Positions 7,201 through 41,180 of a stretch of 64,000 bases of DNA are shown in pieces (position 1 is the stretch's first letter; every line of letters begins with the position of its first letter). The position numbers and the translations under genes are program-made. The notes under the pieces are model-generated. The model did not search any database and was not told where the DNA came from. It worked only from the letters and a program-made list of their open reading frames with translations. Source of the DNA: a candidate division WOR-3 bacterium (GTDB lineage Bacteria > Hydrothermota > Tepidihabitantia > SM23-42 > JAOAFX01); NCBI GenBank assembly GCA_039802005.1, contig JBDRVV010000003.1, positions 64,595 through 128,594 of the forward strand. Reading direction: 5' to 3'.

Positions 7201-7489
7201 CGTTGAAGAAAATAACACGCAGCCTACACAGTTTTTTATAAATCTTTTTTCTCCTAATCCTTATGGCGTCGGACCACTGATTCAGTTAGCAATTCCTGTT
7301 CCGACATCGGTAACACTGAATCTCTACGATATAACGGGCAAATGTGTTTATTCAATTGCAAATGAAATCGTTTCGCCTGGCTATCTCTACTACGACCTCG
7401 GGAAAGAAGAATTATCTGCGGGTATTTACTTCATTTCGGTCAAAACGAAAGAATTTTCAATCGTAAGAAAAATTGTTATTCTGAAATGA
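4265..7489 (+). CDS. Secreted multidomain protein: C25-like peptidase core, WxxW/BNR-like beta-propeller repeats, two Ig-like (PNGGEIW...) domains, divergent T9SS CTD
   Basis: Signal peptide. C25-like blocks IYVGRIYA, CSHSSPWGNTF (His block) and LFQCAGTRF (Cys block). About 50-aa repeats of the form D..G..W..W...R.GN.DIY. Ig-like blocks ITPNGGEIWNIGQTYTIRWSAQDNVAVDS and LIPNGGEIWYWNELHQIRWNSSDNIGID. C-terminus LNLYDITGKCV...AGIYFISV. Confidence 0.55.
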   Translation: MKKFLELSLIFAIPFFISGEGITGIKRLKYVDPYDVQMTSYQEWSAKITKESFKIGKAYQSKIKDSRLPMFDIVVYAPLYPNIIDSLNTYITDLETENYNVRVDTIRGWQAPQLRNHLASLIDSQLVGAVFIGNVPIAWYEYESTEGREEFPIELYFMDLNGTWVDADNDGLFDNHTGNKAPEIYVGRIYANPVTWGNEIWLVNNYLSKIHKYRNIGYAIPKKALAYVDDDWYSFNNCSLNLLYDTVVVIRQYNTTTAADFRTRLDDPYEWVQICSHSSPWGNTFKNTSGYAGTVFNFELWFADPPFLFLNLFQCAGTRFIEENSEGSIYIFNTTNGLLSIGSTKVGSMLNFDGFYGPLNTGISIGQAFKQWFTQYGINDVDWFYGMCILGDPTLKPKRTGLQMVSQNNKYYPLETSLNWSNPAPIDTHPETDAFVTNTIDGQGRLWTAWVTGRSVTNGRTEICASYYANGSWTQAQIVRPYLYWDFFPSMSTDLLGNPYLTWQRAYGRNYDVFGSVYIGNQWGTEEQLSSKASNDMYPAMTRDGDGRLWVCLERWTHLNGDIYCRYFDGTTWQPMFAVTVDSANDYRPAMATDSNGIAWVTWCSERYQYNRNIYVKRYNPTSGSWEGLYRITGNPAQDQDPKIAVSGDGTIWVVWTTWRNGNTDIYESHYNGSTWSNARAVVADPNRDEHPVLVVDRDGYLWCIWQSNRTGDWEIWAKYYKNGAWGDSMVISNNQARDIFPSAIADDSGYIWVFWQSDRRGNWDIFYSKLLSDLVEPQVTVITPNGGEIWNIGQTYTIRWSAQDNVAVDSAVIEYSTNNGNSWSYIATSFGNDSTYLWTIPPTPSTRCLVRIRAFDRNNNIGIDVSNATFTIYDPVSPLVNVLIPNGGEIWYWNELHQIRWNSSDNIGIDSLNIYLSIDSGLTYPYRISHFNTNDSIYNWTIPTVNSNKCLIKVLAYDRSANIGYDVSDNCFTIGAVGVEENNTQPTQFFINLFSPNPYGVGPLIQLAIPVPTSVTLNLYDITGKCVYSIANEIVSPGYLYYDLGKEELSAGIYFISVKTKEFSIVRKIVILK

Positions 7490-11693: not shown

Positions 11694-14498
11694 ATGAAAA
11701 TTCGCTTCGTTTTCTTATTAATAATGATAGAGATAGTTAATGCCCAGTATGTCACACCAAAGCAAGGCTGGTTTAATTTTACAACACCATATCCTGATAC
11801 GATTAACAATATAACACATATTGGCAAATTCATACTCCAACCACCAGCAGGAATTAACGGACGGGTTATTGTCCAATCCGATGGACATCTATATTTTGCC
11901 AATGGGCAGAGGGCAAAATTTTTTGGAACAAACCTCTGTTTTTCAGCAACCTATCCCTCGCAGACCACTGCCTTGAATGTTACACCGCATATCGCCAAAC
12001 AAGGCTTTAATCTGGTGCGCTACCATCACATTGATGGTGCATTAACGAGTGCACCAGGCTCAAATACAACAAGGAGATTGAATCACGAAGTATTGGATAA
12101 ATTTGATTATTTATTTTACCAATTAAAGCAGAAAGGAATTTATTCTGCAATTGATCTCTATAGCATAAGATATTTCAAATCTGGGGATGGAATCCCTTAT
12201 TACGACAGTGTCAACCGCTCAATGGATATCGTAAAAAGGGTTTATATGTTCTACGAACCTGCATATGCACTTTTTCGCGATTACCCTGATAGTCTGCTAA
12301 ATCACATAAATCCCTATACAGGAACTGCCTACAAGAATGACCCTGCATTGGTCTTCATTAATCCAATGAATGAAGGAACTTTGATCGACCATTATTTCTG
12401 GGATAATTGGGATAATATCCAGTCAAATTATTATCTGCCAAGATTCTATAAAAACGAACTACAGAATCAATGGAATGACTGGTTATATTATAGATATCAT
12501 TGGGATTCAACCCTTATAAGAATTTGGTCGGGCGGTGATACTACCACAGGTCCCAATAAGATAATCAACGGTGAATTTTCTGACACCCTGAATGGTGTCC
12601 CAAGATTTTGGTGGCTTAACCAATTCAGTGGTAATTCTACCTGGGGTGTGCAGAATGCAGGATTGAGCCTTGAACCCGCAGTCTTTGTACATATCTATTC
12701 ACCCGGACAATACTCCTGGCATATCCAGTTATTGCAATCAGGATTTACAATCAATACGGATTCCACCTATCGCTTAAGTTTCAAAGCAAAATCAAGCAGA
12801 AACAGGAGTATGGATATCGTCATACAAAGAAACAAGACACCCTGGACTGTTTATTATTCAACAACGATCAACCTCACAACGAGTGGACAGAGTTTTGTCT
12901 TACCATTTTATTCAGGGACATCAGACTCCGTCCAGTTAACATTTAATCTCGGACTTGATACCGGAAGGGTTTGGATTGATGATGTTCAATTGCGTCGTGC
13001 GCCATTTTCAAAAGTTCTGGACCCCGGTGAAAGCCTTGCCACGAGGACAATCAAACTTGTGCGTTGGAGCAATCGTTATGATTATAGTCCTTACCGTTAT
13101 TTTGACCAAATACGATTTTTCTATGAAAAAGAGACAAGATTTTATCAGCGTATTTCAGCCCTTTTGAATGACACATTGCATTGTCAGTCCCTTATCACCT
13201 CTTCCTTTTTCTGGGCAAACCAGCTCCATCAGTACGCCTGGGCAAATTTGGTGCCGGTGATGGACGCCCATCCATATTTTGATCATCCTGATTTTCCCAA
13301 TCAACCCTGGGATACCCTTGATTTCAGAATTACAAACGCCTATTTTGGAGAAGGCAGCAATGGAGAATGGTTCTTCACCTATATGAACCAGTGCGCTGCG
13401 GCGCAGAAACCAATGATAATAACCGAATGGCAACATCCTGCACCCTGCGAATCAAGATATGTCACACTACTGCCGTTCGCCAGTTATGCCGGATTAAGAG
13501 ATTATGATGCAATCATAAATTTTGCTTTTGCCCATTCTGAAGGCAGTTTCTCAAATAATAGGATAAGGGCTTTTTTTGATGCAGCAGGACAACCAATACA
13601 CTTTGCTTTTTTAAGAATAGCGGCACTGGCTTTTTTAAGGGATTTACAACCCGAAGACCTGGTAAGAACACCCTGGACGAGTTTCAATCTTGACCAGATA
13701 ATTAGAGATATTTATGCGGGGAACCACTGGAGCCAGGCAATACCGAGTTCACCAAGGGACCGGATCTTTAATCAGTTCCATTGGAATTCGCAGAAGGGTA
13801 TATTCAAAATTAATACAACGGGAACAAAAGGCTTTTGCGGTAGGACTGCCGGTGATACAGTAATTTTAGGCGGGATAAAAGTAATCGGCAATACCGACGG
13901 TATAATTGCATTTACAAAGATTGACAGCACCGCGGGGCAGAAGTCTTTTCTTGTCGCATCCCTTGCCCGAACCGAAAATACTAATATGGTCTGGGTTGAA
14001 CAGACCAAGACCCAAGGGATGTTGAACTGGGGAACTGCGCCCTGTCAGGTTGAAAGCGTCTCTTATTTTACCCAGTGGCATGCAGATTCATTACTTATCA
14101 GAAAATTAAGTCCTTCAGGAGATATAATAAACTCGACCAAAATAATCGGTTCAAACCATATCACGAACTGGCTTGTCAGAACCGGTATTGATTCTGTCTT
14201 CTGGTATTGTGTTACCGCCCATGGCTATTCTGATACGCTTGTTGGAATTCTGGATATAAAAGCAGTGGATAACAAAAAAATAGAAATTGCAACCATTCAT
14301 AAATCATTATTATTAAAAGACCTACCTGATAATACAGAACTTAAATTGTATTCAATAGACGGGCGACTGATATACCATCAAAAATTTGTTCAATCTCCAA
14401 AAAGGTTGGTTGTTAAAAATCTTCCAAGCGCAGTGTATTTCTACTTGCTAAAAAACAAAAATCTTGAGCAGAAAGGAAAGATAATTATTATTGATTAG
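11694..14498 (+). CDS. Secreted putative glycoside hydrolase (TIM-barrel-like N-domain) with CBM4/9-like module and T9SS-like CTD
   Basis: Signal peptide. N-terminal region FFGTNLCF...GFNLVRYHHIDG resembles GH5/GH-like barrels. Middle block IINGEFSD...RLSFKAKSS resembles CBM_4_9. C-terminus KLYSIDGRLIY...LPSAVYFYLL. Family assignment is weak. Confidence 0.45.
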   Translation: MKIRFVFLLIMIEIVNAQYVTPKQGWFNFTTPYPDTINNITHIGKFILQPPAGINGRVIVQSDGHLYFANGQRAKFFGTNLCFSATYPSQTTALNVTPHIAKQGFNLVRYHHIDGALTSAPGSNTTRRLNHEVLDKFDYLFYQLKQKGIYSAIDLYSIRYFKSGDGIPYYDSVNRSMDIVKRVYMFYEPAYALFRDYPDSLLNHINPYTGTAYKNDPALVFINPMNEGTLIDHYFWDNWDNIQSNYYLPRFYKNELQNQWNDWLYYRYHWDSTLIRIWSGGDTTTGPNKIINGEFSDTLNGVPRFWWLNQFSGNSTWGVQNAGLSLEPAVFVHIYSPGQYSWHIQLLQSGFTINTDSTYRLSFKAKSSRNRSMDIVIQRNKTPWTVYYSTTINLTTSGQSFVLPFYSGTSDSVQLTFNLGLDTGRVWIDDVQLRRAPFSKVLDPGESLATRTIKLVRWSNRYDYSPYRYFDQIRFFYEKETRFYQRISALLNDTLHCQSLITSSFFWANQLHQYAWANLVPVMDAHPYFDHPDFPNQPWDTLDFRITNAYFGEGSNGEWFFTYMNQCAAAQKPMIITEWQHPAPCESRYVTLLPFASYAGLRDYDAIINFAFAHSEGSFSNNRIRAFFDAAGQPIHFAFLRIAALAFLRDLQPEDLVRTPWTSFNLDQIIRDIYAGNHWSQAIPSSPRDRIFNQFHWNSQKGIFKINTTGTKGFCGRTAGDTVILGGIKVIGNTDGIIAFTKIDSTAGQKSFLVASLARTENTNMVWVEQTKTQGMLNWGTAPCQVESVSYFTQWHADSLLIRKLSPSGDIINSTKIIGSNHITNWLVRTGIDSVFWYCVTAHGYSDTLVGILDIKAVDNKKIEIATIHKSLLLKDLPDNTELKLYSIDGRLIYHQKFVQSPKRLVVKNLPSAVYFYLLKNKNLEQKGKIIIID

Positions 14499-16087
14499 CG
14501 AATCAAAATTGCCCTGCGGACTATCGTCATATTATCCTTCGTAAAGCCAATAAAATAAACACCAGCGGGTAAATAATTACCTGTGTCATCAGTTCCATCC
14601 CATATCACATTTTTATTATCAACAGACAAATTCCTAACAACCTGTCCAAGAGCATTGTAAACCTTTATCTTCTGCATAATTCCATTTTGATTTTGAATTA
14701 CAAACCGCCTTCCTATTGTGGGTGAAAGTAAAATATTATCAACGGCAATCCCTTTCTGTTCTTTGATTCCCACAATATGAACCGGAACCGCAAGTTTGGC
14801 TAGTGCGGCCACCCCGGTCTTTATCACCTTGGTCGCAAAAGGCAGATGATTGACCCCACAATTAGTATAAAGATGTGGTCCCAGTGTATCACCGGTCGTA
14901 TGATACGCAGGTGTCAGCTGCCTTTCAATCCCGAGCATCGCCTTATAGCCACGTTTCCAGAAACTTGCATGATCAGAAGAACCACTTGTTCCGGTGTTGC
15001 GGACCATTCTTATTTTCAACTGGGTGTAGGTATCAGCAACCGCCTTATAGAATTGAGTCACAAATACACTGCAACCTGGCACAGCAGTTGTATAATGGGC
15101 ATTCATTGTATCCCGATTGGGATTTGAAGGCGTCACATAACCGATCATATCATAATTGATTACCCCTAAGATTGTATCACCATTTCGCCAGGCGCGTGTT
15201 GCAAAGGAGTCGCTACCATATAAACCCAATTCTTCCGCATTGAATGCTACATAATATATCGTATTTTCAAATAAATAATTTCTCATCACCCTTGCCGCCT
15301 CAATCATTGCAACCGTACCTGATGCATTATCATCCGCCCCTGGTGCATAACCACTTGACGGGACATCATCCATATGTCCACCAATCAAACAGTATCTTTT
15401 AATAGTAGGATATAGATAACCCTTTTTTATTCCTACTACATTCGGTCCATAGTTATTGTTAAAATACTGAAAATATACACTGTCACAACCATAACTCAGT
15501 AATTTATTTCTAATCCAGTTAACGGCAACAATCTTATTGGAATCAGTGGTTGTATACCTTGTATACATTCTCTGCATCCTTAAGATTGATGCCTGAATCG
15601 TATCCTGTGATACTGCCGCAACCATTTTTTGTATAAGGGTATCGGGTGCAAGATTATTTAGATTCAATGGATAAGGGTCTTCATTAAGAAATCTAACTGG
15701 ATCAAATGTCAATCTCCTCAGTTCAACCCTGAGTTTATTCAATTCTATGACTTTCTCTTCAACTGTGCGCAAAAGTAAACAATCTTCATACTGGTCAATA
15801 ATATCTCCATATTGAGCAACTACCGCAGGGTCTTCACCCCAGAGATAAACAATCTGATAGTATTTATCTCTTGGATTCTCGTCAAGCAAATTATATTCAA
15901 CACCCTTGTTCTGGAGTTTGATTAAATCATTGTCAGTTGCAATAATTATTGCATGATTTTCTATCAATTCAACAATATGAAAATCTCTGTCACTCAGATT
16001 ATCCACACGAACAAGGTATTCATTTGCAAAAAGAATACCCGTGAACAAGGAAAGCACAATATTCACCGATATAAAATATTTATTCAT
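14495..16087 (-). CDS. M28 family zinc aminopeptidase with T9SS CTD
   Basis: GGHMDDV, ADDNASG and NAEELGLYGS blocks supply the M28 metal ligands. CTD IKVYNALGQVV...LPAGVYFIGF. Confidence 0.7.
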   Translation of the reverse strand: MNKYFISVNIVLSLFTGILFANEYLVRVDNLSDRDFHIVELIENHAIIIATDNDLIKLQNKGVEYNLLDENPRDKYYQIVYLWGEDPAVVAQYGDIIDQYEDCLLLRTVEEKVIELNKLRVELRRLTFDPVRFLNEDPYPLNLNNLAPDTLIQKMVAAVSQDTIQASILRMQRMYTRYTTTDSNKIVAVNWIRNKLLSYGCDSVYFQYFNNNYGPNVVGIKKGYLYPTIKRYCLIGGHMDDVPSSGYAPGADDNASGTVAMIEAARVMRNYLFENTIYYVAFNAEELGLYGSDSFATRAWRNGDTILGVINYDMIGYVTPSNPNRDTMNAHYTTAVPGCSVFVTQFYKAVADTYTQLKIRMVRNTGTSGSSDHASFWKRGYKAMLGIERQLTPAYHTTGDTLGPHLYTNCGVNHLPFATKVIKTGVAALAKLAVPVHIVGIKEQKGIAVDNILLSPTIGRRFVIQNQNGIMQKIKVYNALGQVVRNLSVDNKNVIWDGTDDTGNYLPAGVYFIGFTKDNMTIVRRAILIR

Positions 16088-17588: not shown

Positions 17589-17894
17589 ATGAATAAATTA
17601 AGAATAAGATTAAAATCTTATGACCATAGAATTCTCGACCAGTCTGTGAAATCCATTGTGGAGACTGTGAAAAGATTTGGCATAAAGATATCAGGCCCTG
17701 TTCCCCTCCCTACTGAACGTTCATTATATACCGTGCTTCGCTCACCGCATGTTGATAAAAAATCAAGGGAACAATTTGAATTGAGAATTCACAAGCGTCT
17801 GATTGAATTGAACGATGTGACTCCTGATATCATTGATGCCCTTAACAAACTTGAAATTCCGGCTGGAGTTTATGTAGAGGTAAAGGCAATATGA
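17589..17894 (+). CDS. rpsJ: 30S ribosomal protein S10
   Basis: [19 protein letters not shown]...; conserved position after tuf. Confidence 0.95.
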
Positions 17895-18502
17895 TTGGAT
17901 TGATAGGCAAAAAGATATGTATGTCTCAAGTTTTTACTGAGGATGGGAAACTCATAGCAGTCACAAAGGTCGAGGCAGGACCCTGTCCTATTGTTCAGGT
18001 AAAAGATGAAAAGAAAGATGGTTATAAGGCAATACAGATTGCATTTGGGACTAAAAAGAAAGTAAACAAACCGCTTCTTGGACATCTGAAAAAGGCAAAT
18101 TTAAAATCCGCAAAGTGGCTTGCTGAATTCAAGACAGAGAATATTGAAAAATACAAACCTGGTGATGTTATTGATTCTAAAATATTTTCGGTGGGTGATA
18201 AAATAAAAGTGACAGGTTTCACAAAAGGACGGGGATTCTCCGGTGGAATGAAGAGATGGGGATGGAAAGGCGGACCTGCATCCCACGGTTCAATGTCACA
18301 CAGAAGGATTGGCTCTGCTGGACATGGACATTCTGATCCAGGTAGGATACTCAAAGGTAAAACAATGCCCGGGCATTATGGAAACGAACGCGTCTCAATT
18401 AAAAATCTCAAGATTGTAAAGATTGAAAACAACATAATCTATTTGCACGGAGCAGTGCCGGGTCCAAAGAACGGTATATTATTATTGAGCAAGGAAGAAT
18501 AG
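17891..18502 (+). CDS. rplC: 50S ribosomal protein L3
   Basis: [31 protein letters not shown]...; position in the S10 operon. Confidence 0.95.
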
Positions 18503-18504
18503 TT

Positions 18505-19137
18505 ATGGACACAAAATTATTTAATCAGAATGGTGAAGAGGTTGGCAAGATAGAATTACCAAAAAAGGTCTTTGGTGCCAAAATCAACAAAACATTGTTA
18601 TGGGAAGCACTCACAATTATATTAAACAACCAGCGGAGCGGCACCGCCAAGACAAAGACACGTGCCGAAGTCAGGGGTGGTGGCAGAAAACCATGGCGTC
18701 AGAAAGGCACAGGATTGGCAAGGCATGGTAGTATTCGTTCTCCAATCTGGCGTAAGGGCGGTGTTGTATTCGGTCCTAAGCCAAGAGATTATTACAAAAA
18801 AATGCCCCAACAGAAAAAAATTAAAGCACTTCTTTCAGCCCTCAGTGTCGCAGCCCAGGAAGATAGAATACGCATAATTGAGGATATGAACATTGAAAAA
18901 CCGAGAACTAAAGTTATTAATGAGTTGTTAAAGAAAATAAATATAGTTGGTTCCAAGATTCTTATCAGCCCTGATAAGATTAACAAAAATCTTCTGCTAT
19001 CAGTTAGAAATATACCAAAAATAAATTTAAAACGCTCAATAGACATAAATTGTTATGATGTGCTATGGGCTGATTATATATTATTCACAAAAAACGGTTT
19101 ATCCGAACTGGAGAAAAGATGCGACCAGATCAAATAA
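18505..19137 (+). CDS. rplD: 50S ribosomal protein L4
   Basis: Operon position and L4-like sequence (RSGTAKTKTRAEVRGGGRKPWRQKGTGLAR). Confidence 0.9.
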   Translation: MDTKLFNQNGEEVGKIELPKKVFGAKINKTLLWEALTIILNNQRSGTAKTKTRAEVRGGGRKPWRQKGTGLARHGSIRSPIWRKGGVVFGPKPRDYYKKMPQQKKIKALLSALSVAAQEDRIRIIEDMNIEKPRTKVINELLKKINIVGSKILISPDKINKNLLLSVRNIPKINLKRSIDINCYDVLWADYILFTKNGLSELEKRCDQIK

Positions 19138-19403
19138 TTATCAGACCAATAATTACAGAAAAGGCAGACCGTCTCAGGGAACTAAATTGCTATCAATTTT
19201 TAGTTTCAAAGAAGGCGAATAAACAGATGATTAAGGAGTCAATAGAAAAATTATTTGGTGTAAATGTTTTGGAAGTACATACCGCAAACTTCCGTGGTAA
19301 ACTGCGCAGACTCGGACGGTCAGAAGGTTATCGTCCTGGTTATAAAAAAGCATCGGTGTGGATTAAACCGGGACAGAAGATTGAAATAGTAGAAGGTGTA
19401 TGA
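19119..19403 (+). CDS. rplW: 50S ribosomal protein L23
   Basis: [10 protein letters not shown]...; operon position. Confidence 0.9.
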
Positions 19404-20224
19404 TGGGTATAAAAGTATATCGTCCTTTAACACCGGGTCGCCGTTTTTATACGGTAAATGTTCCACCAATTACAAAAACTGAACCGGAAAAGAAACTCGT
19501 TATATCTGAAAAGAAGACCGGCGGTAGAAACAACCTGGGGAGAGTTACCGCACGCCATCGTGGTGGTGGGCACCACAAGAAAATAAGGATCGTGGACTTC
19601 AAAAGAGACAAAGACAACATTCCGGCTGTAGTAAGTGCTATTGAATACGACCCGAATCGCAGTGCATACATTGCCCTGCTTACATATAAAGACGGTGAAA
19701 AAAGATATATAATATGTCCGGAAGGATTGAATGTAGGTGAAACAGTAATTTCGGGCGAGGATGTGCCAATAAAAATTGGAAACTGTCTGCCTTTGAGTAA
19801 TATCCCATTGGGTGTGGAAATTCACAATGTTGAAATTTCGCCAAAAAAAGGCGGCGAGCTCGTTCGCAGTGCAGGACTTTCCTGTCAGATTATGGCAAAA
19901 GAAGGAAAGTATGCCCATATCAAACTTCCCTCAGGTGAAGTAAGGTTAGTGGATTTGCGCTGTCGGGCAACCATCGGTAAGGTATCAAATGCTTTGCATT
20001 CAAGTGTATCAATTGGTAAGGCAGGAAGAACAAGGCATATGGGTATCAGACCCTATGTGCGTGGCGTAGCTATGAATCCAATTGACCATCCATTAGGCGG
20101 TGGTGAAGGAAGGGCACACGGTGGCAGGCATCCAACATCACCCTGGGGTTGGTTGACAAAAGGCAAGAAAACAAGAAAAAAGAAAAAGGCTTCAGATAAA
20201 TTTATCGTAAAAAGGAGAAAGTGA
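19400..20224 (+). CDS. rplB: 50S ribosomal protein L2
   Basis: [13 protein letters not shown]..., [19 protein letters not shown], and a basic C-terminal tail. Confidence 0.95.
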
Positions 20225-20517
20225 TGTCTCGTTCCTTGAAAAAAGGTCCTTATATAGACCAGAAACTTCTGAAAAAAATAATGCACCTTATCGAAACTAA
20301 AGAAAAGAAAGTGATTAAAACCTGGGCAAGGAATTCTACTATTCCGCCTGAATTTGTCGGCTTTACAATTGCGGTTCACAATGGCAATCGTTTTATTCCA
20401 GTATATATCACAGAAAGAATGGTTGGGCACAAACTCGGCGAGTTTGCACCAACAAGAACATTCCGTGCTCATTCCGGGACAAGAAAAGCCGAGAAAGAAA
20501 GAGAGTCAGAAAAATGA
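20221..20517 (+). CDS. rpsS: 30S ribosomal protein S19
   Basis: [18 protein letters not shown]...[13 protein letters not shown]. Confidence 0.95.
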
Positions 20518-20882
20518 TGACACGTGCAGTTAAAAGATACGAAAGGGCATCACCTTTAAAGGTAAGGAAGATTCTAAGAGAGATTAAAGGTAAACCTGTT
20601 CCACAGGCACGGGCAATATTGACACTGCATCATTCGCGGACAAAAATACCTATTTTGAAAACGCTTAATTCAGCGGTCGCAAATTTAAAGAATAAAGTTG
20701 GTTCAGTAAGAGTTGAAGATAATGACCTATATGTAAAAGAAGCCATTGCCAATGAAGGTCCACGGTTTAAACGTCTTCGCCCCGGTTTCAGGGGTAGTCC
20801 TTCAATAATTAAAAGACCAACCTGTCATATCACAATTATTGTTGATTCTTACAAACCAATACAATCAAAGAAAGGAGAATAA
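20514..20882 (+). CDS. rplV: 50S ribosomal protein L22
   Basis: Operon position and L22-like sequence. Confidence 0.9.
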
Positions 20883-21505
20883 TGGGTCAAAAAACACATC
20901 CTATAGGCTTCCGTCTCGGTGTAACAAAAGATTGGAAATCAAAATGGTTTGATGAAACTTCATATGCAAAATTGGTTATAGAAGATTTTAATATCCGTCG
21001 CTATTTAAATAAGCGGCTTGCAGACTGTATGGTCTCTAATATAGTAATAAAACGAGTATCAAACAAAGTAATTATCACAATCTATACTGCCCAGCCCGGT
21101 AAAATCATTGGCAAGGGTGGTGAGGAGATCAAAAAACTCCATGAAGAAATTAAAAGTCTTATAAAGAGTGAAGTTTCAATCAACATAGAAGAAGTAAGAA
21201 TTCCTGAGCTTGATGCCAATCTTGTTGCCCAGAATATAGCCCGACAGATCGAACAAAGGATTTCACATCGCAGGGCAATGAAACGATCGGTAATCTCAGC
21301 AATGAAGATTGGTGCAAAAGGAATTAAAGTAAGTTGTGGGGGCAGGCTTGGCGGTGCTGAGATTGCCCGGAGTGAATGGTATCGTGAAGGTCGTGTTCCC
21401 TTACAAACGATTAAGGCAGATATAGATTTTGCTCGTGCTACAGCATTCACAATTTATGGAACAGTTGGTGTAAAGGTCTGGATATATAGAGGAGATGCGC
21501 AATAA
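20882..21505 (+). CDS. rpsC: 30S ribosomal protein S3
   Basis: [23 protein letters not shown]... Confidence 0.95.
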
Positions 21506-21936
21506 TGTTAGAACCTAAAAAGGTAAAATATCGTAAACAACAGAGAGGTAGAAGAAAAGGAAAGGCAACAAGTGGTAGCACAATTGCCTTTGGTGAATAC
21601 GGACTCATGGCACTTGAGCCAGCCTGGATAACCGCACGTCAAATAGAAGCAGCAAGAGTCGCCATTACCCACAGTATGAGAAAAGGTGCCAAAGTCTGGA
21701 TTAGAATATTCCCTGATAAACCCGTAACGAAAAAACCAGCAGAGACGAGAATGGGAAAAGGAAAAGGAGCACCTGAATTCTGGGTCAGCGTTGTTAAACC
21801 AGGTAGAATTATTTTTGAGATTGAAGGAGTTTCAAATGAAGAAGCTCGTGAATTATTCCGTGTCGCTGCCAGTAAGTTACCGATTAAGACAAGATTTGTC
21901 AAAAGAGAAGAGGGAATAAAATATGAAGGTTTATGA
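21505..21936 (+). CDS. rplP: 50S ribosomal protein L16
   Basis: [21 protein letters not shown]... Confidence 0.95.
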
Positions 21937-22174
21937 ACTTAGAGAAAAATCACGAGAAGAATTGATTGAGATACTAAACGGATTATACCGTGAATTATTC
22001 AATCTGCGCATTCGCCACGCATCCCAGCAATTACCCAATCCAGTTAGATTACGAATTATAAAAAAAGATATCGCAAGGATAAGAACAATTCTTCGCGAAG
22101 ATGAATTAGGAAAGAGAAAATTATTACAACCCAAACAAGTTCAGACTAAGACAAAAGCAAAGAAAGGAGAATAA
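21923..22174 (+). CDS. rpmC: 50S ribosomal protein L29
   Basis: [29 protein letters not shown]... Confidence 0.85.
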
Positions 22175-22407
22175 TGCGTAAAACCAAGGTTGGTGTTGTG
22201 GTAAGTGATAAAATGCAGAAAACCGTTATCGTTAAGTTCCAAAGATTTGTTAAACATCCGCTATATAAGAAACATATCAAAAAGGCAACGAAGGTGTATG
22301 CCCATGATGAAAAAAATGAATGTAAGATTGGTGATAAGGTGTTGATTGAAGAAACACGCCCCTTATCTAAATTGAAAAGGTGGCGGGTTTTAAAGAAAAT
22401 AATATAA
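22174..22407 (+). CDS. rpsQ: 30S ribosomal protein S17
   Basis: [33 protein letters not shown]... Confidence 0.9.
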
Positions 22408-22450
22408 AAATGTTGAATTTTGAGATTAATCAAATGATAGTGAGGTTCAG

Positions 22451-22819
22451 GTGATTCAAATCTATTCAAGATTAAAGGTATGTGATAATACTGGTGCACG
22501 GGTGGCAATGTGTATGCATGTTACTGGAAGTTCGGGAAGGCGTTATGCCTATGTTGGTGATATTATTAATGTAACAATAAAAGATGCCTTGCCCCATGCA
22601 CCAATCAAAAAAGGTGATAAGGCAAAGGCAGTAATAGTCCGAACAAGAAAAGAAATTAGACGTCCTGATGGTTCTTATGTAAGGTTTGATGACAATGCCT
22701 GTGTCTTGATCAACGAGCAAAAAGAACCAAAAGGAACAAGGGTATTCGGACCTGTAGCGCGTGAATTACGCGAAAAAGGATTTACAAAAATACTTTCTTT
22801 AGCGAGTGAAGTTGTATGA
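22451..22819 (+). CDS. rplN: 50S ribosomal protein L14 (GTG start)
   Basis: [16 protein letters not shown]..., a conserved L14 N-terminus. The start codon is GTG at 22451. Confidence 0.95.
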
Positions 22820-23148
22820 AAGAAATAAAAAAAATAAAATTTGATATCAAAAAGAATGACCTGGTTGAGGTCATTTCTGGCGAAGAAAAAGGTAGAAGAG
22901 GTAGGGTGCTTGAAGTGGACCGTGAAAAAGGAAAGGCAATAGTTGAAGGAGTCAATCTTGTAAAAAAACATCAGCGCGCCCGTTCTCAGACCCAACCTTC
23001 TGGTATAATTACGAAACCAGCACCAATTCATATTTCAAATCTTGTTCTCATCTGCCCCAAATGTGGGAAAAAAGCCAAAATAAAAAGAGAAAAGGTTGAA
23101 AAAAGAAGGGTTAGAATTTGTAAAGAATGTGGGGAGATAATAGAATGA
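22816..23148 (+). CDS. rplX: 50S ribosomal protein L24 with C-terminal Cys4 zinc-ribbon-like tail
   Basis: KOW motif [25 protein letters not shown]-terminus [28 protein letters not shown] carries two CxxC pairs. Confidence 0.85.
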
Positions 23149-23705
23149 AAAAGAGTTATAAACCACGATTAAAGATTTTTTACGAAGAAACACTGCGAAA
23201 CTCATTATTAAAAAAATTAGGATATAAAAATATTTATCAAGTGCCGCAACTCAAAAAGATAGTTATTAATGTTGGTGTCGGTGAGGCAGTTTCAGATCCC
23301 AAAATATTGGAAATAATAAAAGAGGATCTGGCAAAGATAACTGGACAAGCACCGGCTTACACGCGTGCGAAAAGACCCATCTCTAATTTTAAAATTCGCA
23401 AAGGCATGACAATAGGATTAAAAGTAACGCTGAGGGGCAACCGTATGTATGAATTCTTTGATAGATTTATTAATTTCGCAGCACCCAGGATAAGAGATTT
23501 CAAAGGTTTCAAAAGGGATTCATTTGATGGTCGTGGTTCTTATAATCTGGGTTTGACTGAGCAAACCATATTTCCTGAGATTGAATATGACAAAGTGAAA
23601 AAGGTCTTCGGGATGGATATTGCGCTTGTAACTTCAGCAAAAAAAGATGAGGATGCCCTTGCATTGCTTGAAGGACTGGGCATGCCTTTTGAGAGAAAAA
23701 AATAA
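23127..23705 (+). CDS. rplE: 50S ribosomal protein L5
   Basis: L5 sequence; operon position after L24. Confidence 0.95.
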
Positions 23706-23718
23706 AAGAGGAGGCTAA

Positions 23719-23904
23719 TTGGCAAAGTTATGTTTGGTTATAAAGGCAAAAAGACCGCCAAAGTTTGCAACCCGGAAATATAACCGCTGTCAGAGGTGCG
23801 GAAGGCCAAGGGGATTTTACAGAAAATTTGGTCTGTGCCGTATTTGCTTCAGAGAGCTCGCACTTCAGGGCGAACTTCCCGGGGTTAGAAAAGCAACCTG
23901 GTAA
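23719..23904 (+). CDS. rpsZ: 30S ribosomal protein S14 type Z (zinc-binding, 61 aa)
   Basis: [16 protein letters not shown]...[25 protein letters not shown]; short C4 form of S14. Confidence 0.9.
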
Positions 23905-24457: not shown

Positions 24458-25492
24458 TTAAAATAATTTTAACAAGGGGTTACCGTATAGCACAAATTGT
24501 AGCAAGGTCTTCTGATCGTCATCATCAAGAAACCCGTGGCGTCTTATCATTTTACGGGCGAAATCAATTTTAGCATTTTTAAATGCCTCACCAACTGATA
24601 ACCCCTGTTTTAAATACTCAAAAAGATATTTAATAAGAAGGTCAGCCTCACTTGATGGTGGCGTTGGAGGTCCGTAAGCAATCGTCGTTGAACCGCAGAA
24701 TCCAATGATATTATTCTGTTCTAAAAATTTTAAGGAAAGCGCATTTTTCTCAGTTTTGTTTATTATATAAGCACCATAACATGCCTCGGATGCAACAAAG
24801 CCCGTCGCCGATAAAATATTAGCAGGTCTCAATGCAACGGGATATTCACCACCCTGCTGTCCGTACCAGTTTTCAGATATTGCACTACCATGCAAATTAA
24901 AATATAAAAAATCCTTTTTGTTAAGCCACTCTGAATTAAAATTTTGGGATGTTGTGGGTGGCGAAATCTTCAAGTCTTTTACATCACCTATCTGTTTGTA
25001 AACATTCTTTGATGCCTCCTTCCAAACTTCGGCACTCATACCAAATGATTTATCAAACCTTGTAAACGATTTATTCAATTGTTTGATAATAAAATCCATT
25101 TTATTATTATCCGGTATCCTTGCACAAGCTCTTTCGGGGATTAAAAAGTCATCATCCCTTGAAGCATAGGGATTATCAGATAAAACGCTCGCGTCATCAT
25201 CATCGCAAGGATTTGGCAAACGATAGAATGGTACAACGCTATCTCCTCCAATGATTAAAACTGTCTGAATATTTCCCCATTTTTTTTCCAGTTTATTAAT
25301 GAACTCCCTTATGTCCTTTGGTTTTTTCTTTACCGGTTTGATATTGAAAACGTTTTCATCATCAAAAAAAACAAATTTTATATCACAATTTTTGTTTCTC
25401 TTTTTATATCTTTCAATCTCTTCTACAAGTGGTTTCAAATCACCAACTTCTTTTTGCAATGCCTTTTTGCAACTTAAGATCAACATACGCAT
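24458..25492 (-). CDS. Cytoplasmic caspase-fold (C25/CHAT-like) putative cysteine peptidase
   Basis: No signal peptide. TVLIIGGDSVVPF resembles the gingipain LLVGD..IP block. His-Gly dyad FNLHGS and Cys block ASEACYGAYI are placed in the order of caspase-hemoglobinase-fold peptidases. Confidence 0.4.
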   Translation of the reverse strand: MRMLILSCKKALQKEVGDLKPLVEEIERYKKRNKNCDIKFVFFDDENVFNIKPVKKKPKDIREFINKLEKKWGNIQTVLIIGGDSVVPFYRLPNPCDDDDASVLSDNPYASRDDDFLIPERACARIPDNNKMDFIIKQLNKSFTRFDKSFGMSAEVWKEASKNVYKQIGDVKDLKISPPTTSQNFNSEWLNKKDFLYFNLHGSAISENWYGQQGGEYPVALRPANILSATGFVASEACYGAYIINKTEKNALSLKFLEQNNIIGFCGSTTIAYGPPTPPSSEADLLIKYLFEYLKQGLSVGEAFKNAKIDFARKMIRRHGFLDDDDQKTLLQFVLYGNPLLKLF

Positions 25493-25647
25493 AATGTATT
25501 ATAACAAAAAAATACATAAAAGTCAATCCTGTTTTTTATTGAATCATTTTTAACTACAATATCTTATCCAATAAATTGGTTAACCATAAAAAAGTTTATT
25601 GAACTCAAAAGAAGGAAAATAATTGTTTATGCAATTATAGGAGAAAT

Positions 25648-25687
25648 TGTTGCGACATTGCATAAATGATGTTGCAATTATGCAACA
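25648..25687. promoter_or_regulatory. Cluster of TTGCA/TGCAA half-sites, including the perfect palindrome TGTTGCA-ATTA-TGCAACA (25670-25687); candidate enhancer-binding-protein UAS or operator
   Basis: An 18-bp perfect inverted repeat plus a degenerate neighbour TGTTGCGACATTGCATAA (25648-25665). The core matches the LuxO/NtrC-type TTGCA-Nx-TGCAA architecture. Confidence 0.4.
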
Positions 25688-25780
25688 ATCAAATATATTC
25701 AATATCAGCGTAAATTCTCACGATTTATGGGGAAATTATGAAGTTATAATTAAAATTAAGTGTAATAATTCCAGAGGCAC

Positions 25781-25798
25781 TGTTGCAAAATTGCAACA
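25781..25798. promoter_or_regulatory. Second palindrome TGTTGCA-AAAT-TGCAACA; candidate UAS
   Basis: Perfect 7+4+7 inverted repeat, about 90 bp upstream of the -24 element at 25881. Confidence 0.45.
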
Positions 25799-25879
25799 TA
25801 TTTTAGCATATCGTTTCCGTTTTTTACTCTATCAGAGGAAAAACTTATGAAATTTCGGAGGTTTTTTAAAATTATAGAC

Positions 25880-25896
25880 GGGCACGCATTTTGCCT
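25880..25896 (+). promoter_or_regulatory. Sigma-54-type promoter (-24 GG / -12 GC): gGGCACGcattTTGCc
   Basis: GG at 25881-25882 and GC at 25893-25894 (12-nt spacing). Fits the TGGCACG-N4-TTGCW consensus except for the first T. Confidence 0.45.
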
Positions 25897-25905
25897 ATAG
25901 ATATA

Positions 25906-25982
25906 TAGGGTAGAGTAAAATAGGGCGGAAAGTGGAGAGGGGTTTGTAGAAAAACTTAGGCACTTCCGCCCTCTTTTTTGTT
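25906..25982 (+). ncRNA. Candidate ~75-nt sigma-54-dependent small RNA or leader, ending in an intrinsic terminator
   Basis: Predicted TSS about 12 nt after the -12 GC. The transcript would end at hairpin GGGCGGAAAGTG...CACTTCCGCCC (25923-25971) followed by CTCTTTTTTGTTCT. No ORF. Confidence 0.3.
25922..25982 (+). terminator. Rho-independent terminator-like hairpin plus U-tract
   Basis: 11-bp GC-rich stem with one bulge and a 26-nt loop, followed by TCTTTTTTGTTCT. Confidence 0.5.
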
Positions 25983-26001
25983 CTACTGCCAAAGGAGAGA
26001 A

Positions 26002-26214
26002 ATGAAAATGAAAACAGGAAATATTGAAGATATTCCAAATATAAATGAAATAAAAACAAAGGCCGAACAGAAATATATTGTAACGATTTTGAATACAGTA
26101 AATTGGCATATGACCGAGGCAGCGCGATTAATGGGCATAAATCGTTCAACCCTTTTTCGGAAGATAAAAAAATACGGAATAACTAAAAAGAAACCAAAAA
26201 GGTTGGCTTTTTAA
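26002..26214 (+). CDS. Small Fis-family (HTH_8) DNA-binding protein
   Basis: C-terminus TEAARLMGINRSTLFRKIKKYGI matches the Fis/NtrC C-terminal HTH. RBS aaaggagag at 25990-25998. The ORF track starts at 25978, but the ATG at 26002 has better RBS spacing. Confidence 0.6.
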   Translation: MKMKTGNIEDIPNINEIKTKAEQKYIVTILNTVNWHMTEAARLMGINRSTLFRKIKKYGITKKKPKRLAF

Positions 26215-37337: not shown

Positions 37338-40300
37338 TTACCGTGCTATTATAAACTTCTCAATTTTTTTATCAGTTCCGGAATTTCCCTCAGCAAGGAT
37401 ATTAACCAAATATACACCATTACTCAAATCATCCCCATACTCATCTCTGCCATCCCAGAATTTTTGATTATAGCCCGCATGACAGGAAAGTTCTGGTAAG
37501 ACCTTAACCAATCTGCCTGCAATCGTATAGATTTTTATCGTTACCTTTGCGCTTTGCGAAAGGACAAATGTAATCCATATACCTTTATGATGTTTTACAG
37601 GATTAGGATATATCAGAACATTCTCTATTGAAATGCGCTCATAGATATTAGCATTCAATAGAATCTTTTCAATGGTTTGATTATAACAATTATCACTTAC
37701 ATAGACGGTTATAGATTCTTGTGGATTATCAAGTGTAATTTCGGTTTTGAATTCTCCTTCTGAATAGGAATTTTGATTGTAGATAAAATTATTACGCAAA
37801 TCAACACGATTTAAGACATTATCCTTGCCCACATACAAAAAGAAACCACGTGCGTCTTCTTTAGAATTTAAAAGGTTAATTCCACTTTCATCAGAGACAA
37901 TTCCGGTAAGCGTAAAAGTCTTATCCACCCAGTCTCCATTTTTTAATTGTCGTGCACCATCATAGAATAATACTTTAGGACCCTCCTGGTCAGTAGTAGG
38001 CATTACAGTCCCCCAGACACGGATAGAATCAAGTGTACTACTTGTTTGGTCTTTATAACCACTCAATTTAATCACAGGTAAATGAGTTGTTGAAATAATT
38101 GGTACAGCAAATTGTGCGGTATCAATCGTCCAGTAACCATTATAAACTTCTTTACCTTCTATTCGATAATCAAAAATTAAAGTATCCTGGGTGTTAGGGC
38201 CTACACGCACCGTGCGTCTTATATGGCTGCTTATTTTATTTACGGTAGTAGGATCAATCCATTTGATATGCGTGGTATCTTTAATATATGCAGTCAAATA
38301 ATATGGTTTTTTATCAGAAAGTACTTTCAATTTCTCTAATGGCCTTATTGAGTCTTGAACTGTTTGAATATTGAAATTCTGTTTTACCTTTCTTATTTTA
38401 GTCGCCGGGTCACCAAGCATCAAATAGGTGGATATACCATTCCCTCTGTGTTTGGCAATATAATAACATTCACCCATTGTCAGATTTGTATCGGGATGCG
38501 TAAAGAGTCTAAAAAGTTCAATACCAATCGGTTGATTTGTACTTGTATTTGAAGCAGCGTGTGCACCCATTGTGCCGATCGCCCCCTGTTTCATTCTCAC
38601 AAATTCTTCAGCAATACACTCATGGTCTGAGTCATCAAATCTACCCACTGTGCAGGAAGCAAAATAGAAGAAGAAAAATCTCCTTCCATTATTCACCCTT
38701 GGTATATCGGTTTCTATAAATAATTTTTCATGGGCAAGTTGATGGGTATTACCATGCCCAAAGAAACAACCAATCAAGGCACCCTTATTGAGTTCCTTGA
38801 TAAAATCTTCTGTCGCAAGGGGTTTCACGGTATTCACATCATGAGGAGGAAATGGTAAATAACTCAGCATATATATTTTAGCCCGATCATATAACAGATT
38901 TGAGACAAAAGAATTAACTGCCTCACAGGCAGAAGAATGTGTAGTTCCTTCCCACCCATTTGCATATTCATCATCTGCAGAAAGTATGATTCTTCTATTC
39001 CATGTTCCATCTATATCACTATTCTCATAGGCAAATACTTTATCAATAAAATCACGGACTTCCTTGTTGGTACGGACAGTTATTCTGCCAAGAACCATTG
39101 CCTCAGTCCCGAAGAAATTCACATACTCACCCTCGTAGATATAGTTAGGTGGGATCCCTGGATTACCCGAAAGTGTTGTCCCGGTCTCATACATTGGGAC
39201 ATAATTCGGTGGATTCTCCTTGCCGAGGTTATTTTTGTAATCATAGGTAGCATCGCCAACGATAAGGACATACTTTGGAATAGTAGACCAGTTATTGTAT
39301 GTATGATAAAGAAAATGTTTAATTGCCAATGGGTCATATTTTCCGAAAGAAAAGTCATCAAATATTGCATCTACAGTTACCACCTTTGTAGTATATTCCT
39401 GCCGGCGATAATTGACCAAAGGCATTATTGAGTTATAAAAATTTTTGTGGGTTATGATCAAATATTCAGATCCATTGTCCACAGTTCTCAAACGACCCGG
39501 ACTGACTGGAATTAGTTTTGCATCAATTGCTGATTTTAATTGGGCAGCATACAATAACTGAAAAGAATCACAATTGCTGGAAAATGTGATATTCTTCCCA
39601 CTCATCAAAAAGTTATCAAGCATCTTTGGCTGGCGTAAGTCGGTTATATCAATGATAAATGGTTTAGAATTAACATTCTTGCATCTTATTGAATAATCAA
39701 CAGGATTTTTGAAAAAACAATGAAAAGGCTCAGTCATATCCGCCAAACGATTGTATTCTATATCAAAACAATTCAGGTAAACTGTAAGTCTTGTCGTGTC
39801 GGGTGGTAACCTTCTAACCCAGAATTCAAAAATAGAGGAATCCTTATTTAAAACACAGGTTCCTGATAATTTGACCGGGGGTAAAGACATCGTCTGCGGC
39901 AGGACAATAGTATCATTGAAAAAAGATTGACCGTCCAGAATTAACCTATACCAGAATGGCTGGGGACTCGGACTCATAGAATCAAATATTGATACAATAA
40001 TATTTGCATTACCAGAAGCATATTTATGGTTTAGGGGGACTCTCACAACCGTACTTTCAGCAGTGCCCAATGAAAAATCCATCCAGTACCAGTTTATTCC
40101 AGAACGTGTCGGATTATGAATATCCTCTTCAAAATGCAGAATTTCTTTAACGACGGTATCCGGGTTTGAATTATTCGAGGTTGCATTCACCTTTTCCATT
40201 CTCTTTCCTAACGCACCACCAAATGTAAACCAATATACATTATTTTTTGCATAGCCATTTTCATACCATTTCAAAAATGTATCTGGAACAAAATGGCTTG

Positions 40301-41180
40301 CAGGGAAACCGTAGAATATTAAATAATCATCTTTATCAAAACTATGGTCTTCTTCACCCTCAACAAATACAGGAATTTCTATGAGGGAATCAGGGAACTG
40401 CTGGAGCACATTTTTGGGCAATAGTTCAAATGCTGCATTGTATACCTTCATTGTTTGCGGGTCAAGTTGCCGCGGGTTTATCCCTGCCTTTTTTAGCTCA
40501 TCATACCCTATTTTATATAAACCTTCTTTATCTACTTCAATCTTAAACCATATGTTACTGACTGAAAATGGATTCTTTATTGTTTGTTCTAACCTTTCTC
40601 TACGCCAATATTTACACTGATCATAATTTATTATTACCCTCTTATAAATTTCCTCAAAAGAATCATTAAAGAGCGGTACCACCTTTGGTTTACCTTTAAA
40701 TTTGACTGTGATCTTCAAAACCCGCGAAATTATAATTTCTTTTTTAATAGGGTTATAGCGTACCGGATTTATTTTTAAACTAACTGTATTAATATCACGG
40801 AAATAATTAGGAGCAGATACTTCAATTATGTTTTCGGGATAGAGATGGTCTTTCTGATAGACTTTAGATACCTGATTATTAATCTCACCATAATCTCCCT
40901 CATATATTGCAAGTGACGGTACCGGCTTTATATCTATTCCAGAGTAAATTTCAGTATGATGTTCTATGACTCTCACATCCACATCGCCTTCCTGGGGAAT
41001 GCCTACAAATAAATTTAAAGAAGGTACATCGGGTTCACCGGGCTGGGCAAATGATGTCGCCCCGCTGAATTTTAAATTATTTAGTTCTATTTCTCTCCCG
41101 TAAAAATTAATCTGGATGCCCGCATCGCCCAGATTATTTACACTAACGGCAGAAATGATAAAGAAAGAAATGACAAACAT
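37338..41180 (-). CDS. Peptidase C25 (gingipain-like) cysteine peptidase, 1280 aa, with Ig-like modules and T9SS CTD
   Basis: YLIITHKNFY, YVLIVGDATYDY, GCFFGHGNTHQ (catalytic His) and FYFASCTVGRFD (catalytic Cys). CTD YPNPVKHHKGIWITF...KIYTIAGRLV...GVYLVNI. Confidence 0.75.
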   Translation of the reverse strand: MFVISFFIISAVSVNNLGDAGIQINFYGREIELNNLKFSGATSFAQPGEPDVPSLNLFVGIPQEGDVDVRVIEHHTEIYSGIDIKPVPSLAIYEGDYGEINNQVSKVYQKDHLYPENIIEVSAPNYFRDINTVSLKINPVRYNPIKKEIIISRVLKITVKFKGKPKVVPLFNDSFEEIYKRVIINYDQCKYWRRERLEQTIKNPFSVSNIWFKIEVDKEGLYKIGYDELKKAGINPRQLDPQTMKVYNAAFELLPKNVLQQFPDSLIEIPVFVEGEEDHSFDKDDYLIFYGFPASHFVPDTFLKWYENGYAKNNVYWFTFGGALGKRMEKVNATSNNSNPDTVVKEILHFEEDIHNPTRSGINWYWMDFSLGTAESTVVRVPLNHKYASGNANIIVSIFDSMSPSPQPFWYRLILDGQSFFNDTIVLPQTMSLPPVKLSGTCVLNKDSSIFEFWVRRLPPDTTRLTVYLNCFDIEYNRLADMTEPFHCFFKNPVDYSIRCKNVNSKPFIIDITDLRQPKMLDNFLMSGKNITFSSNCDSFQLLYAAQLKSAIDAKLIPVSPGRLRTVDNGSEYLIITHKNFYNSIMPLVNYRRQEYTTKVVTVDAIFDDFSFGKYDPLAIKHFLYHTYNNWSTIPKYVLIVGDATYDYKNNLGKENPPNYVPMYETGTTLSGNPGIPPNYIYEGEYVNFFGTEAMVLGRITVRTNKEVRDFIDKVFAYENSDIDGTWNRRIILSADDEYANGWEGTTHSSACEAVNSFVSNLLYDRAKIYMLSYLPFPPHDVNTVKPLATEDFIKELNKGALIGCFFGHGNTHQLAHEKLFIETDIPRVNNGRRFFFFYFASCTVGRFDDSDHECIAEEFVRMKQGAIGTMGAHAASNTSTNQPIGIELFRLFTHPDTNLTMGECYYIAKHRGNGISTYLMLGDPATKIRKVKQNFNIQTVQDSIRPLEKLKVLSDKKPYYLTAYIKDTTHIKWIDPTTVNKISSHIRRTVRVGPNTQDTLIFDYRIEGKEVYNGYWTIDTAQFAVPIISTTHLPVIKLSGYKDQTSSTLDSIRVWGTVMPTTDQEGPKVLFYDGARQLKNGDWVDKTFTLTGIVSDESGINLLNSKEDARGFFLYVGKDNVLNRVDLRNNFIYNQNSYSEGEFKTEITLDNPQESITVYVSDNCYNQTIEKILLNANIYERISIENVLIYPNPVKHHKGIWITFVLSQSAKVTIKIYTIAGRLVKVLPELSCHAGYNQKFWDGRDEYGDDLSNGVYLVNILAEGNSGTDKKIEKFIIAR

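Follow-up and report, generated by a model that had tools for sequence, protein, structure and literature searches.

A conserved sigma-54 promoter island with a probable structured, terminator-like leader upstream of a small Fis-type helix-turn-helix gene in candidate division WOR-3

The window analysed here is a stretch of 64 kb from candidate division WOR-3, a bacterium that is not cultivated, and the focus is the 510-bp gap to the left of a small gene for a Fis-type helix-turn-helix (HTH) protein. A sequence-only reading of this gap had proposed a regulatory island with sites of the NtrC/LuxO type, a sigma-54 promoter and a discrete small RNA (sRNA). The regulatory island is genuine. Its layout, made of palindromic sites, a GAAATTTC-N5-T5 motif, a -24/-12 promoter and a leader, recurs with fixed spacing in 16 distinct WOR-3 loci. 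The elements as they occur in the window are collected in Table 1, together with other features of the stretch.

Loci of relatives were gathered in three ways: exact proteins were looked up, species genomes were scanned with a DNA pattern, and metagenomes were scanned with a protein profile. Sixteen distinct orthologous sequences form the ingroup, L036 and L044 serve as outgroups, and the scan for enhancer sites took in 18 loci. Homologue searches found close homologues of the small HTH protein only within candidate division WOR-3. In the conservation profile, island elements show 80-99% identity, whereas the surrounding spacers show 20-40%. To the right of the island, synteny is constant across loci: a GHL10 gene in convergent orientation is accompanied by an HD-GYP gene and by CbiMNQO. 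The gene on the left differs: it is a C25-like gene after the ribosomal-protein operon in most loci, PorV in L009, L010 and L045, and yet other genes in L007 and L013, EF-Tu being among the left neighbours found. Whichever neighbour is present, the entire island stays beside the HTH gene.

Table 1. Positions of the island elements and of other features in the window (strand-neutral features are marked with a dot)
Feature	Position	Strand	Remark
Enhancer site 1, distal and degenerate (TGTTGCGACATTGCATAA)	25648..25665	.	centre 22 bp from site 2
Enhancer site 2, perfect 18-bp palindrome TGTTGCA-ATTA-TGCAACA (TGTTGCAATTATGCAACA)	25670..25687	.	column identity 0.78-0.87
Weaker conserved island between sites 2 and 3 (GATTT.T.G...TTT-like)	25721..25737	.	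profile about 0.6 versus 0.3 in flanks
Enhancer site 3, perfect 18-bp palindrome TGTTGCA-AAAT-TGCAACA (TGTTGCAAAATTGCAACA)	25781..25798	.	centre 91.5 bp before GG of the -24 element
GAAATTTC-N5-TTTTTT motif, candidate DNA-bending (IHF-like) site	25849..25867	.	conserved in all ingroup loci
Sigma-54 promoter GGGCACG-CATT-TTGCC (GGGCACGcattTTGCc)	25880..25896	+	GG 25881-2, GC 25893-4
Invariant 5' tail GGGTAGAGTAAAA, 5' strand of closing helix P1	25908..25920	+	column identity 0.92
GC-rich hairpin P2 (AGGGCGGAA-A-GTG ... CAC-TTCCGCCCT)	25922..25972	+	26-nt loop with conserved GAGGG
T-rich tract and 3' strand of P1 (CTTTTTTGTTCTAC)	25973..25987	+	sequence poorly conserved, complementarity to tail kept
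Shine-Dalgarno sequence AAGGAG of the HTH gene	25992..25997	+	unpaired in predicted folds
Small Fis-type HTH gene, DNA-binding domain only	26002..26214	+	70 aa, or 68 aa from 26008
Sigma-70-type promoter TTGACT-17-TATAAT of the divergent C25-like gene	25498..25526	-	separate from the sigma-54 island
Type IX-sorted secreted proteins	1177-4245, 7486-9042, 14495-16087, 37338-41180, 44872-47619		

The -24/-12 element described by the sequence-only reading was recovered, and its spacing is conserved in the 16 loci. In the window, GGGCACGCATTTTGCC (25880-25895) deviates at one position from TGGCACN5TTGC, and the GG and GC dinucleotides have the 10-bp spacing of sigma-54 promoters. Across the family, the GGCAYR-N4-TTGC pattern is invariant in spacing and yields the consensus GGCACGAAATTTGCATATA. 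Transcription is predicted from this geometry to start at about 25905-25908. The GAAATTTC-N5-T5 motif lies 23 nt upstream of the GG in the window, 32-35 nt upstream of it in relatives and 13 nt upstream of it at a second promoter of the window (57077-57059, minus strand). These spacings step by 10 bp and therefore fit a site for an architectural, IHF-like protein acting in dependence on the face of the helix. The weaker island between sites 2 and 3 resembles the bending motif and is possibly a second candidate site for an architectural protein. In addition, TTTTTTACTCTATC (25820-25833), on the 5' side of the promoter, repeats the leader tail (25908-25920) in inverted orientation. The two repeats bracket the bending motif and the promoter, and TTTTTTACTCTATC is weakly conserved in relatives, with a TTCTAT core. 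Among the other sigma-54-like sites of the window, only that at 57039-57053 on the minus strand proved real; a site at 13242 was discarded as intragenic.

Upstream of the promoter, the two perfect palindromes and the degenerate third copy are found where they had been described. In the window, the site centres stand about 91, 202 and 224 bp before the GG, within the range of about 80-250 bp from which an AAA+ activator acts as at an enhancer. The distances are well kept, since in all ingroup loci site 3 is separated from site 2 by 93-111 bp (mostly 108-111) and its centre from the GG by 88-104 bp. Ten of the 18 loci scanned have a recognisable site 1 (one core mismatch or none) 21-22 bp upstream of site 2; in the others it is degenerate or absent. 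The arms of site 2 are invariant across the 18 loci while its N4 spacer varies, and the spacer between the TTGCA and TGCAA half-sites is 4 nt in each site of each locus scanned. Invariant half-sites with freely variable 4-nt spacers are the signature of a site for a dimeric protein rather than of an RNA hairpin. The comparison with LuxO drawn by the sequence-only reading thus stands for the TTGCA half-site, which equals that of the LuxO consensus TTGCAW3TGCAA (PMC11443567), and fails for the spacer, which is of 4 nt instead of 3. When further copies were sought over the 64 kb, sites 2 and 3 were the sole palindromes without mismatch; a palindrome-like site at 29323 has two mismatches and lies within genes, so that the window holds no convincing extra copy. 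A role of the palindromes in the control of the divergent C25-like gene was also considered and set aside: this gene has its own sigma-70 promoter, and the sites remain where the gene is absent.

The gene downstream encodes, as had been recognised, a Fis-type protein. It matches Pfam HTH_8 (E = 2.6e-12, 46.7 bits) as its sole domain, and the AAA+ domain for interaction with sigma-54 is missing. The best matches among solved structures are residues 45-97 of Fis (E = 8e-6) and DNA-binding domains of the NtrC family. The N-terminal beta-hairpin arm of Fis (about residues 1-44) has no counterpart, since only some 8-20 residues precede the Fis-aligned region. The gene is conserved, and its profile shows a 3-base periodicity.

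The two outgroups give an indication of the activator. In L036, where the HTH protein is 47% identical, the gene of a histidine kinase comes first and that of a REC-AAA+-HTH activator of 452 aa second; after them come TATTGCA-N4-YGCAATA sites, two in number, then a sigma-54 promoter and finally the small HTH gene. In L044, a WOR-3 locus with 59% identity, three TATTGCA-N4-TGCAA(C/T)A sites spaced by 22 bp and 109 bp are followed by a promoter-like GGCACG-N4-TTCC and the small HTH gene; about 1.4 kb downstream of this gene come an FG-GAP histidine kinase and, again, a 452-aa REC-AAA+-HTH activator. The -12 element of L044 carries TTCC in place of TTGC. The domain order of the outgroup activators is REC-Sigma54_activat-HTH_8. 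Between the small HTH protein of the window and the DNA-binding domain of the L044 activator, identity amounts to 52%, and the recognition helix RSTLFRKIKK is the same in both. We infer that a response regulator resembling NtrC and LuxO activates the promoter, and that the small protein could occupy the same sites. A profile search for full-length activators with this DNA-binding domain returned short proteins and fragments only. In the outgroups (L036 2840-2990; L044 5720-6005) only some 5-20 nt separate the sigma-54 promoter from the start codon of the HTH gene, so that their mRNAs would be nearly leaderless. Since the promoter directly adjoins the HTH gene there and no hairpin is present, the ancestral task of the promoter would be expression of the HTH protein, and the hairpin would have been acquired later, in one clade.

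A second sigma-54 system is found in the window. Its promoter, AGGCACGATTTTTGCATATATAA at 57053-57039 (minus strand), belongs to an island (57039-57193, minus strand) that carries two TGCGACA-N4-TGTCGCA palindromes and the GAAATTTC-N5-T5 motif, and that sits between the gene of a giant activator (57235-62109, minus strand) and an HD-GYP gene (56328-56939, minus strand). The giant activator has 1624 aa and combines Ser/Thr-kinase, AAA16/TPR, GAF, Sigma54_activat and HTH_8 parts. The recognition helix of this protein is RRTIERYIKK, unlike the one of the small HTH protein, and the change of helix goes along with the change of half-site. The presence of a second promoter of the same style argues that enhancer-dependent transcription is probably used in this genome. 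The window codes for a Sigma54_activat protein, and activators adjoin the orthologue in L036 and L044; no rpoN gene lies within the window.

The segment between the promoter and the HTH gene has a strong conservation of its own. It begins 13-15 nt after the TTGC in all loci, that is, at the predicted transcription start. The tail GGGTAGAGTAAA is 92% identical, the 5' arm of the hairpin about 80%, the GAGGG part of the loop 70% and the 3' arm CACTTCCGCCCT 99%, while the linker from the hairpin to the Shine-Dalgarno sequence is only 24-56% identical. The 13-nt tail and the 3' arm even surpass the coding sequence in the conservation profile. A covariance model of the leader matches the window at 25908-25974 with 84 bits, and finds one match per locus in the 245 kb of sequence collected. 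The element is single-copy, with one per genome in seven WOR-3 species representatives, and always linked to the HTH gene; a pattern scan of 185,579 species genomes returned these seven WOR-3 matches plus eight chance matches in GC-rich genomes. The covariance model does not find it in L036 or L044. No Rfam family matches the leader at gathering score or at E <= 10, the best sub-threshold hits being microRNA models with at most 23 bits. It may be noted that in L045, which belongs to a clade with a 59-aa HTH protein, an insert of about 175 nt (5828-6000) separates the leader hairpin from the Shine-Dalgarno sequence and bears GC-rich hairpins of its own, such as CCCGAAGGGACTCTCGTCCCATCGGGACGG.

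The 11-bp GC-rich hairpin and the T-tract that the sequence-only reading had seen are present, with a transcription start predicted about 17 nt before the hairpin, and the element is kept in the 16 distinct loci. The stem of P2 is formed by GGGCGGAA(A)GTG and CACTTCCGCCC (25923-34 and 25961-71), followed by TCTTTTTTGTTCT, and contains 11 bp, of which 8 are G-C, with one bulge. The hairpin region folds with -33.7 kcal/mol (z = -3.5), and none of 200 shuffled sequences folds as well. The check by folding and covariance therefore had a divided outcome: the fold energy and the sequence conservation are in favour of the hairpin, but the stem shows no compensatory changes. As a consequence, P2 rests on invariance and thermodynamics, not on covariation. 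Stem variants are of the G-U and not of the A-C type, which favours the plus strand as the RNA strand. A leader peptide within the loop was rejected because the reading frames are broken by indels, and so was a terminator for a minus-strand gene, since the HTH gene intervenes between the hairpin and the nearest such gene.

A second helix, P1, would close the leader. In the minimum-energy fold of the window, the 5' tail pairs with 25976-25987, and in 13 of 15 minimum-energy folds it pairs with the non-conserved linker, which closes the leader into one hairpin ending 3-10 nt before the Shine-Dalgarno sequence. The summed duplex energy of P1 has a z of -6.7 against shuffled linkers, with none of 1000 shuffles as good; the loci being related, this statistic is supportive and not decisive. 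The partner of the tail changes in sequence and in register whereas complementarity is retained. In L002, L003 and L032, it lies 9-17 nt past the stem, beyond the expected end of a terminated RNA.

These features of P1 and P2 bear on the idea that the element acts as DNA. It would then be a quasi-palindrome of about 80 bp, either a domesticated palindromic insertion or a repressor operator past the start, devoid of any RNA function. Its near-palindromic character, with antisense matches of the covariance model of up to 30 bits, would agree with this, as would arms that are invariant without covariation and an absence from the outgroups that implies a single gain. However, a single copy per genome does not make a repeat family, the tolerance of G-U and not of A-C speaks for pairing in plus-strand RNA, the partner of P1 shifts with complementarity kept, and arms 26 nt apart are unlike the sites of dimeric operator proteins. 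A purely DNA-level element is thus very improbable.

The nature of the 3' side of the hairpin is of importance for the other possibilities. Among 17 flank sequences (the 16 distinct loci and the near-duplicate L010), the first 8 nt after the stem contain at least five T in 14; the count is seven of eight in the window and three of eight in L009. A GC-rich stem is thus directly followed by a U-tract, as in intrinsic terminators. On the other hand, the loop has 19-26 nt instead of the 3-8 nt of such terminators, and a consensus terminator scan made no call on the plus strand.

Termination at this tract underlies the proposal of a discrete Qrr-like sRNA of about 75 nt ending at 25982. In general terms, a sigma-54-dependent, trans-acting sRNA of 65-80 nt would end at the T-tract and use its tail, GGGUAGAGUAAA, as a seed against distant mRNAs in the manner of Qrr; expression of the HTH protein would be due to incidental read-through, unless the locus has a dual function. 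A sigma-54 promoter with LuxO-like half-sites (PMC11443567) would be in line with this, and the T-rich tract, the invariance of the 13-nt 5' segment and of the 3' arm beyond that of coding sequence, and the conservation of the L045 hairpin in spite of a distance of about 175 nt from the open reading frame may be read in the same sense. As had been claimed, no open reading frame lies between the promoter and the hairpin, according to the list of reading frames. However, the transcript is hardly an independent unit. The open reading frame of the HTH gene, with a strong Shine-Dalgarno sequence, begins 20-35 nt after the stem, and the promoter scan finds no sigma-70-like site between the hairpin and the ATG, so that no promoter other than the sigma-54 one is seen to serve the gene. 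The same promoter serves this gene without a hairpin in the outgroups, the element exists in one copy per genome and never away from the HTH gene, and P1 needs nucleotides beyond the expected termination point, the tail pairing past the T-tract. Furthermore, the long loop is atypical for an intrinsic terminator, no similarity to Qrr, to another described sRNA family or to Rfam was detected, and a scan of the window and of the +/-6 kb flanks for complements of the tail, arm or loop gave no recurrent site close to ribosome-binding sites. A stand-alone sRNA is therefore not favoured and is considered unlikely, and better agreement is reached with the alternative already voiced by the sequence-only reading, in which the element belongs to the HTH gene as its leader or attenuator.

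Intermediate between the two, a dual-function RNA may be envisaged. Termination or processing would free a riboregulator of about 70 nt, whose GGGUAGAGUAAA tail pairs with distant mRNAs, and read-through would yield the paralogue competing for the enhancer sites. Such a locus, which we regard as quite unlikely, would give one two-component system both RNA and protein outputs with a built-in negative feedback, and would represent a Qrr-like circuit that arose independently of that of Vibrio.

Regulated transcription attenuation deserves separate consideration. Here, the hairpin and T-tract would terminate transcription conditionally, with the read-through set by a ligand, by a protein or by the HTH product, as a second checkpoint after sigma-54 activation. 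The terminator-like shape and the conserved T-richness point in this direction, the nucleotides held invariant in the loop and tail hint at a partner that recognises the sequence, and the downstream gene does depend on read-through. Nevertheless, no conserved antiterminator pairing was found, P1 and P2 being compatible and not in competition; the strength of the T-tract varies widely between L009 and the window; the loop is long; and no riboswitch or leader family matches. On balance, attenuation of this kind seems rather improbable.

The model that we prefer, with somewhat better than even confidence, is that the small HTH gene is controlled by sigma-54 and an activator of the NtrC type and is expressed through a 5' leader that is conserved, structured and terminator-like, its product being a paralogue reduced to the DNA-binding domain. 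Its elements, their conservation and spacing, the gene linkage, the folds and the helix identity were computed, and binding, transcription start, read-through, stabilisation and feedback are added as deduced steps. A phosphorylated response regulator of the NtrC type (REC-AAA+-HTH), whose gene would be outside the window, would bind as dimers to the three sites, at about -115, -225 and -247. A bend at the GAAATTTC-N5-T5 motif would carry it to the sigma-54 RNA polymerase at GGCACG-N4-TTGC, and RNA synthesis would begin near 25906. The first 80 nt or so would fold into one long closed hairpin, made of P1 (tail and linker) and of the GC-rich stem of P2, a few nucleotides before a free Shine-Dalgarno sequence. 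This leader would act in cis on the HTH mRNA. Stabilisation of the mRNA is its likely role because the leader base-pairs the 5' end. As no promoter-like site exists between the hairpin and the reading frame, the hairpin must be read through for the HTH protein to be made; its terminator-like shape probably aborts a fraction of the transcripts, which would make it a leaky attenuator. Finally, because of the identical recognition helix, the HTH product probably binds the TTGCA-N4-TGCAA sites of the activator, and would exert feedback on its own promoter or act as an output regulator.

Several observations weigh against this preferred model. The cognate activator, with the same recognition helix, was not found within the window, and the only activator present there has a different helix. 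P1 is not predicted in the fold of L045, and the duplex-energy test gives no significant P1 in L012 and L009. The insert of L045 implies that the leader element need not abut the ribosome-binding site. P2 is without compensatory changes, the stem being 92.7% paired and free of double changes. Since the T-rich tract is kept in most flanks, a substantial part of the transcripts may plausibly terminate there and yield a short RNA. The near-invariant tail, GAGGG loop and 3' arm exceed what a purely structural element needs; a sequence-specific partner is thereby implied, and no reading offered here explains such invariance. In addition, the loci share a phylogeny, so that the conservation statistics overstate their independence, and the transcription start, the read-through and the 3' ends are all predicted from the sequence.

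Comparison with known systems places the locus between several types. In the LuxO-sigma-54-qrr system of Vibrio, as here, an NtrC-family regulator with TTGCA/TGCAA half-sites about 90-120 bp upstream acts on a -24/-12 promoter, and a short structured RNA begins at +1. The contact residues of LuxO helix 3, S-x-I-Y-R-K-L (PMC11407668), resemble the S-T-L-F-R-K-I of the WOR-3 locus. In contrast, the WOR-3 sites have 18 bp and a 4-nt spacer and are three in number, at spacings of 22 bp and about 110 bp; the transcript would run into a protein-coding gene, is encoded once per genome and has no likeness to Qrr in sequence or in Rfam. Sigma-54 promoters of the NtrC/IHF type, such as those of the glnAp2 and nifH type, have paired upstream sites, a helically phased bending site and a GG-N10-GC geometry (PMC5095919). 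The island has these same features, but its half-site and its GAAATTTC-N5-T5 motif differ from the sites of enterobacterial NtrC and IHF, and the gene that it controls codes for a paralogue of the activator's DNA-binding domain and for no further domain.

As to the protein, Fis is thought to derive from the C-terminal domain of NtrC (Morett and Bork 1998, as cited in PMC7166090), and NinH of phage lambda, with 68 aa, illustrates that a Fis-like protein of this size can bind and bend DNA (PMC7166090). The WOR-3 protein is likewise small, dimeric and of the HTH_8 type. Unlike E. coli Fis, it is without N-terminal beta-hairpin arms, its helix reads NRSTLFRK where that of Fis reads NRGTLRKK, and its gene is under a sigma-54 promoter whose sites match the likely specificity of the protein itself. 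As to the leader, the mRNAs of bacteria may carry 5'-terminal stabiliser stem-loops, for example in the 5' untranslated region of E. coli ompA. The WOR-3 hairpin is similar in that it starts 0-3 nt from the predicted 5' end and stops shortly before a free Shine-Dalgarno sequence. It differs in a primary sequence far more conserved than is needed for this purpose and in its terminator-like T-tract.

In a phylum without a genetic system, the locus offers a case of sigma-54 enhancer-dependent regulation supported by comparative genomics; among the papers searched, none links WOR-3 with sigma-54. TGTTGCA-N4-TGCAACA and TGCGACA-N4-TGTCGCA, each with its own helix, give in miniature a naturally occurring table of specificities of Fis-type HTH domains. 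An activator that apparently drives a stand-alone copy of its own DNA-binding domain would be a simple design for competitive feedback, and would parallel the proposed origin of Fis from NtrC. In a limited literature search, no earlier case was met in which an enhancer-binding protein has a competitor made of the DNA-binding domain only. The leader of about 65 nt appears to be an undescribed conserved RNA motif without an Rfam family. The half-site with its spacer, the phased GAAATTTC-N5-T5 motif and the arrangement in which an activator drives its own domain also appear undescribed, the logic of promoter and enhancer being of the textbook kind; none of these findings overturns known principles.

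Some features of the surroundings may be added. The divergent C25-like gene (24458-25492, minus strand) encodes 344 aa with no Pfam match of its own, and its orthologues bear precomputed Peptidase_C25 matches, several of them weak. Its promoter stops 5 nt short of the ATG, which suggests a leaderless mRNA. Further to the left, a run of ribosomal-protein genes (17891-23904) comprises L29, S17, L14, L24, L5 and a zinc-type S14 in the window; L2 to L5 were called in syntenic loci. After S14 the run breaks off and minus-strand genes of unknown function come next, which leaves S8, L6, L18 and S5 not contiguous with it; the same break after S14 is seen in L001-L006 and L012. Elsewhere in the window, large secreted proteases (C25 gingipain-like, M14 and M28) carry type IX sorting domains (Por_Secre_tail or FlgD_ig), as does a secreted WD40/beta-propeller-like protein of 915 aa. 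The many secreted proteases suggest a proteolytic lifestyle.

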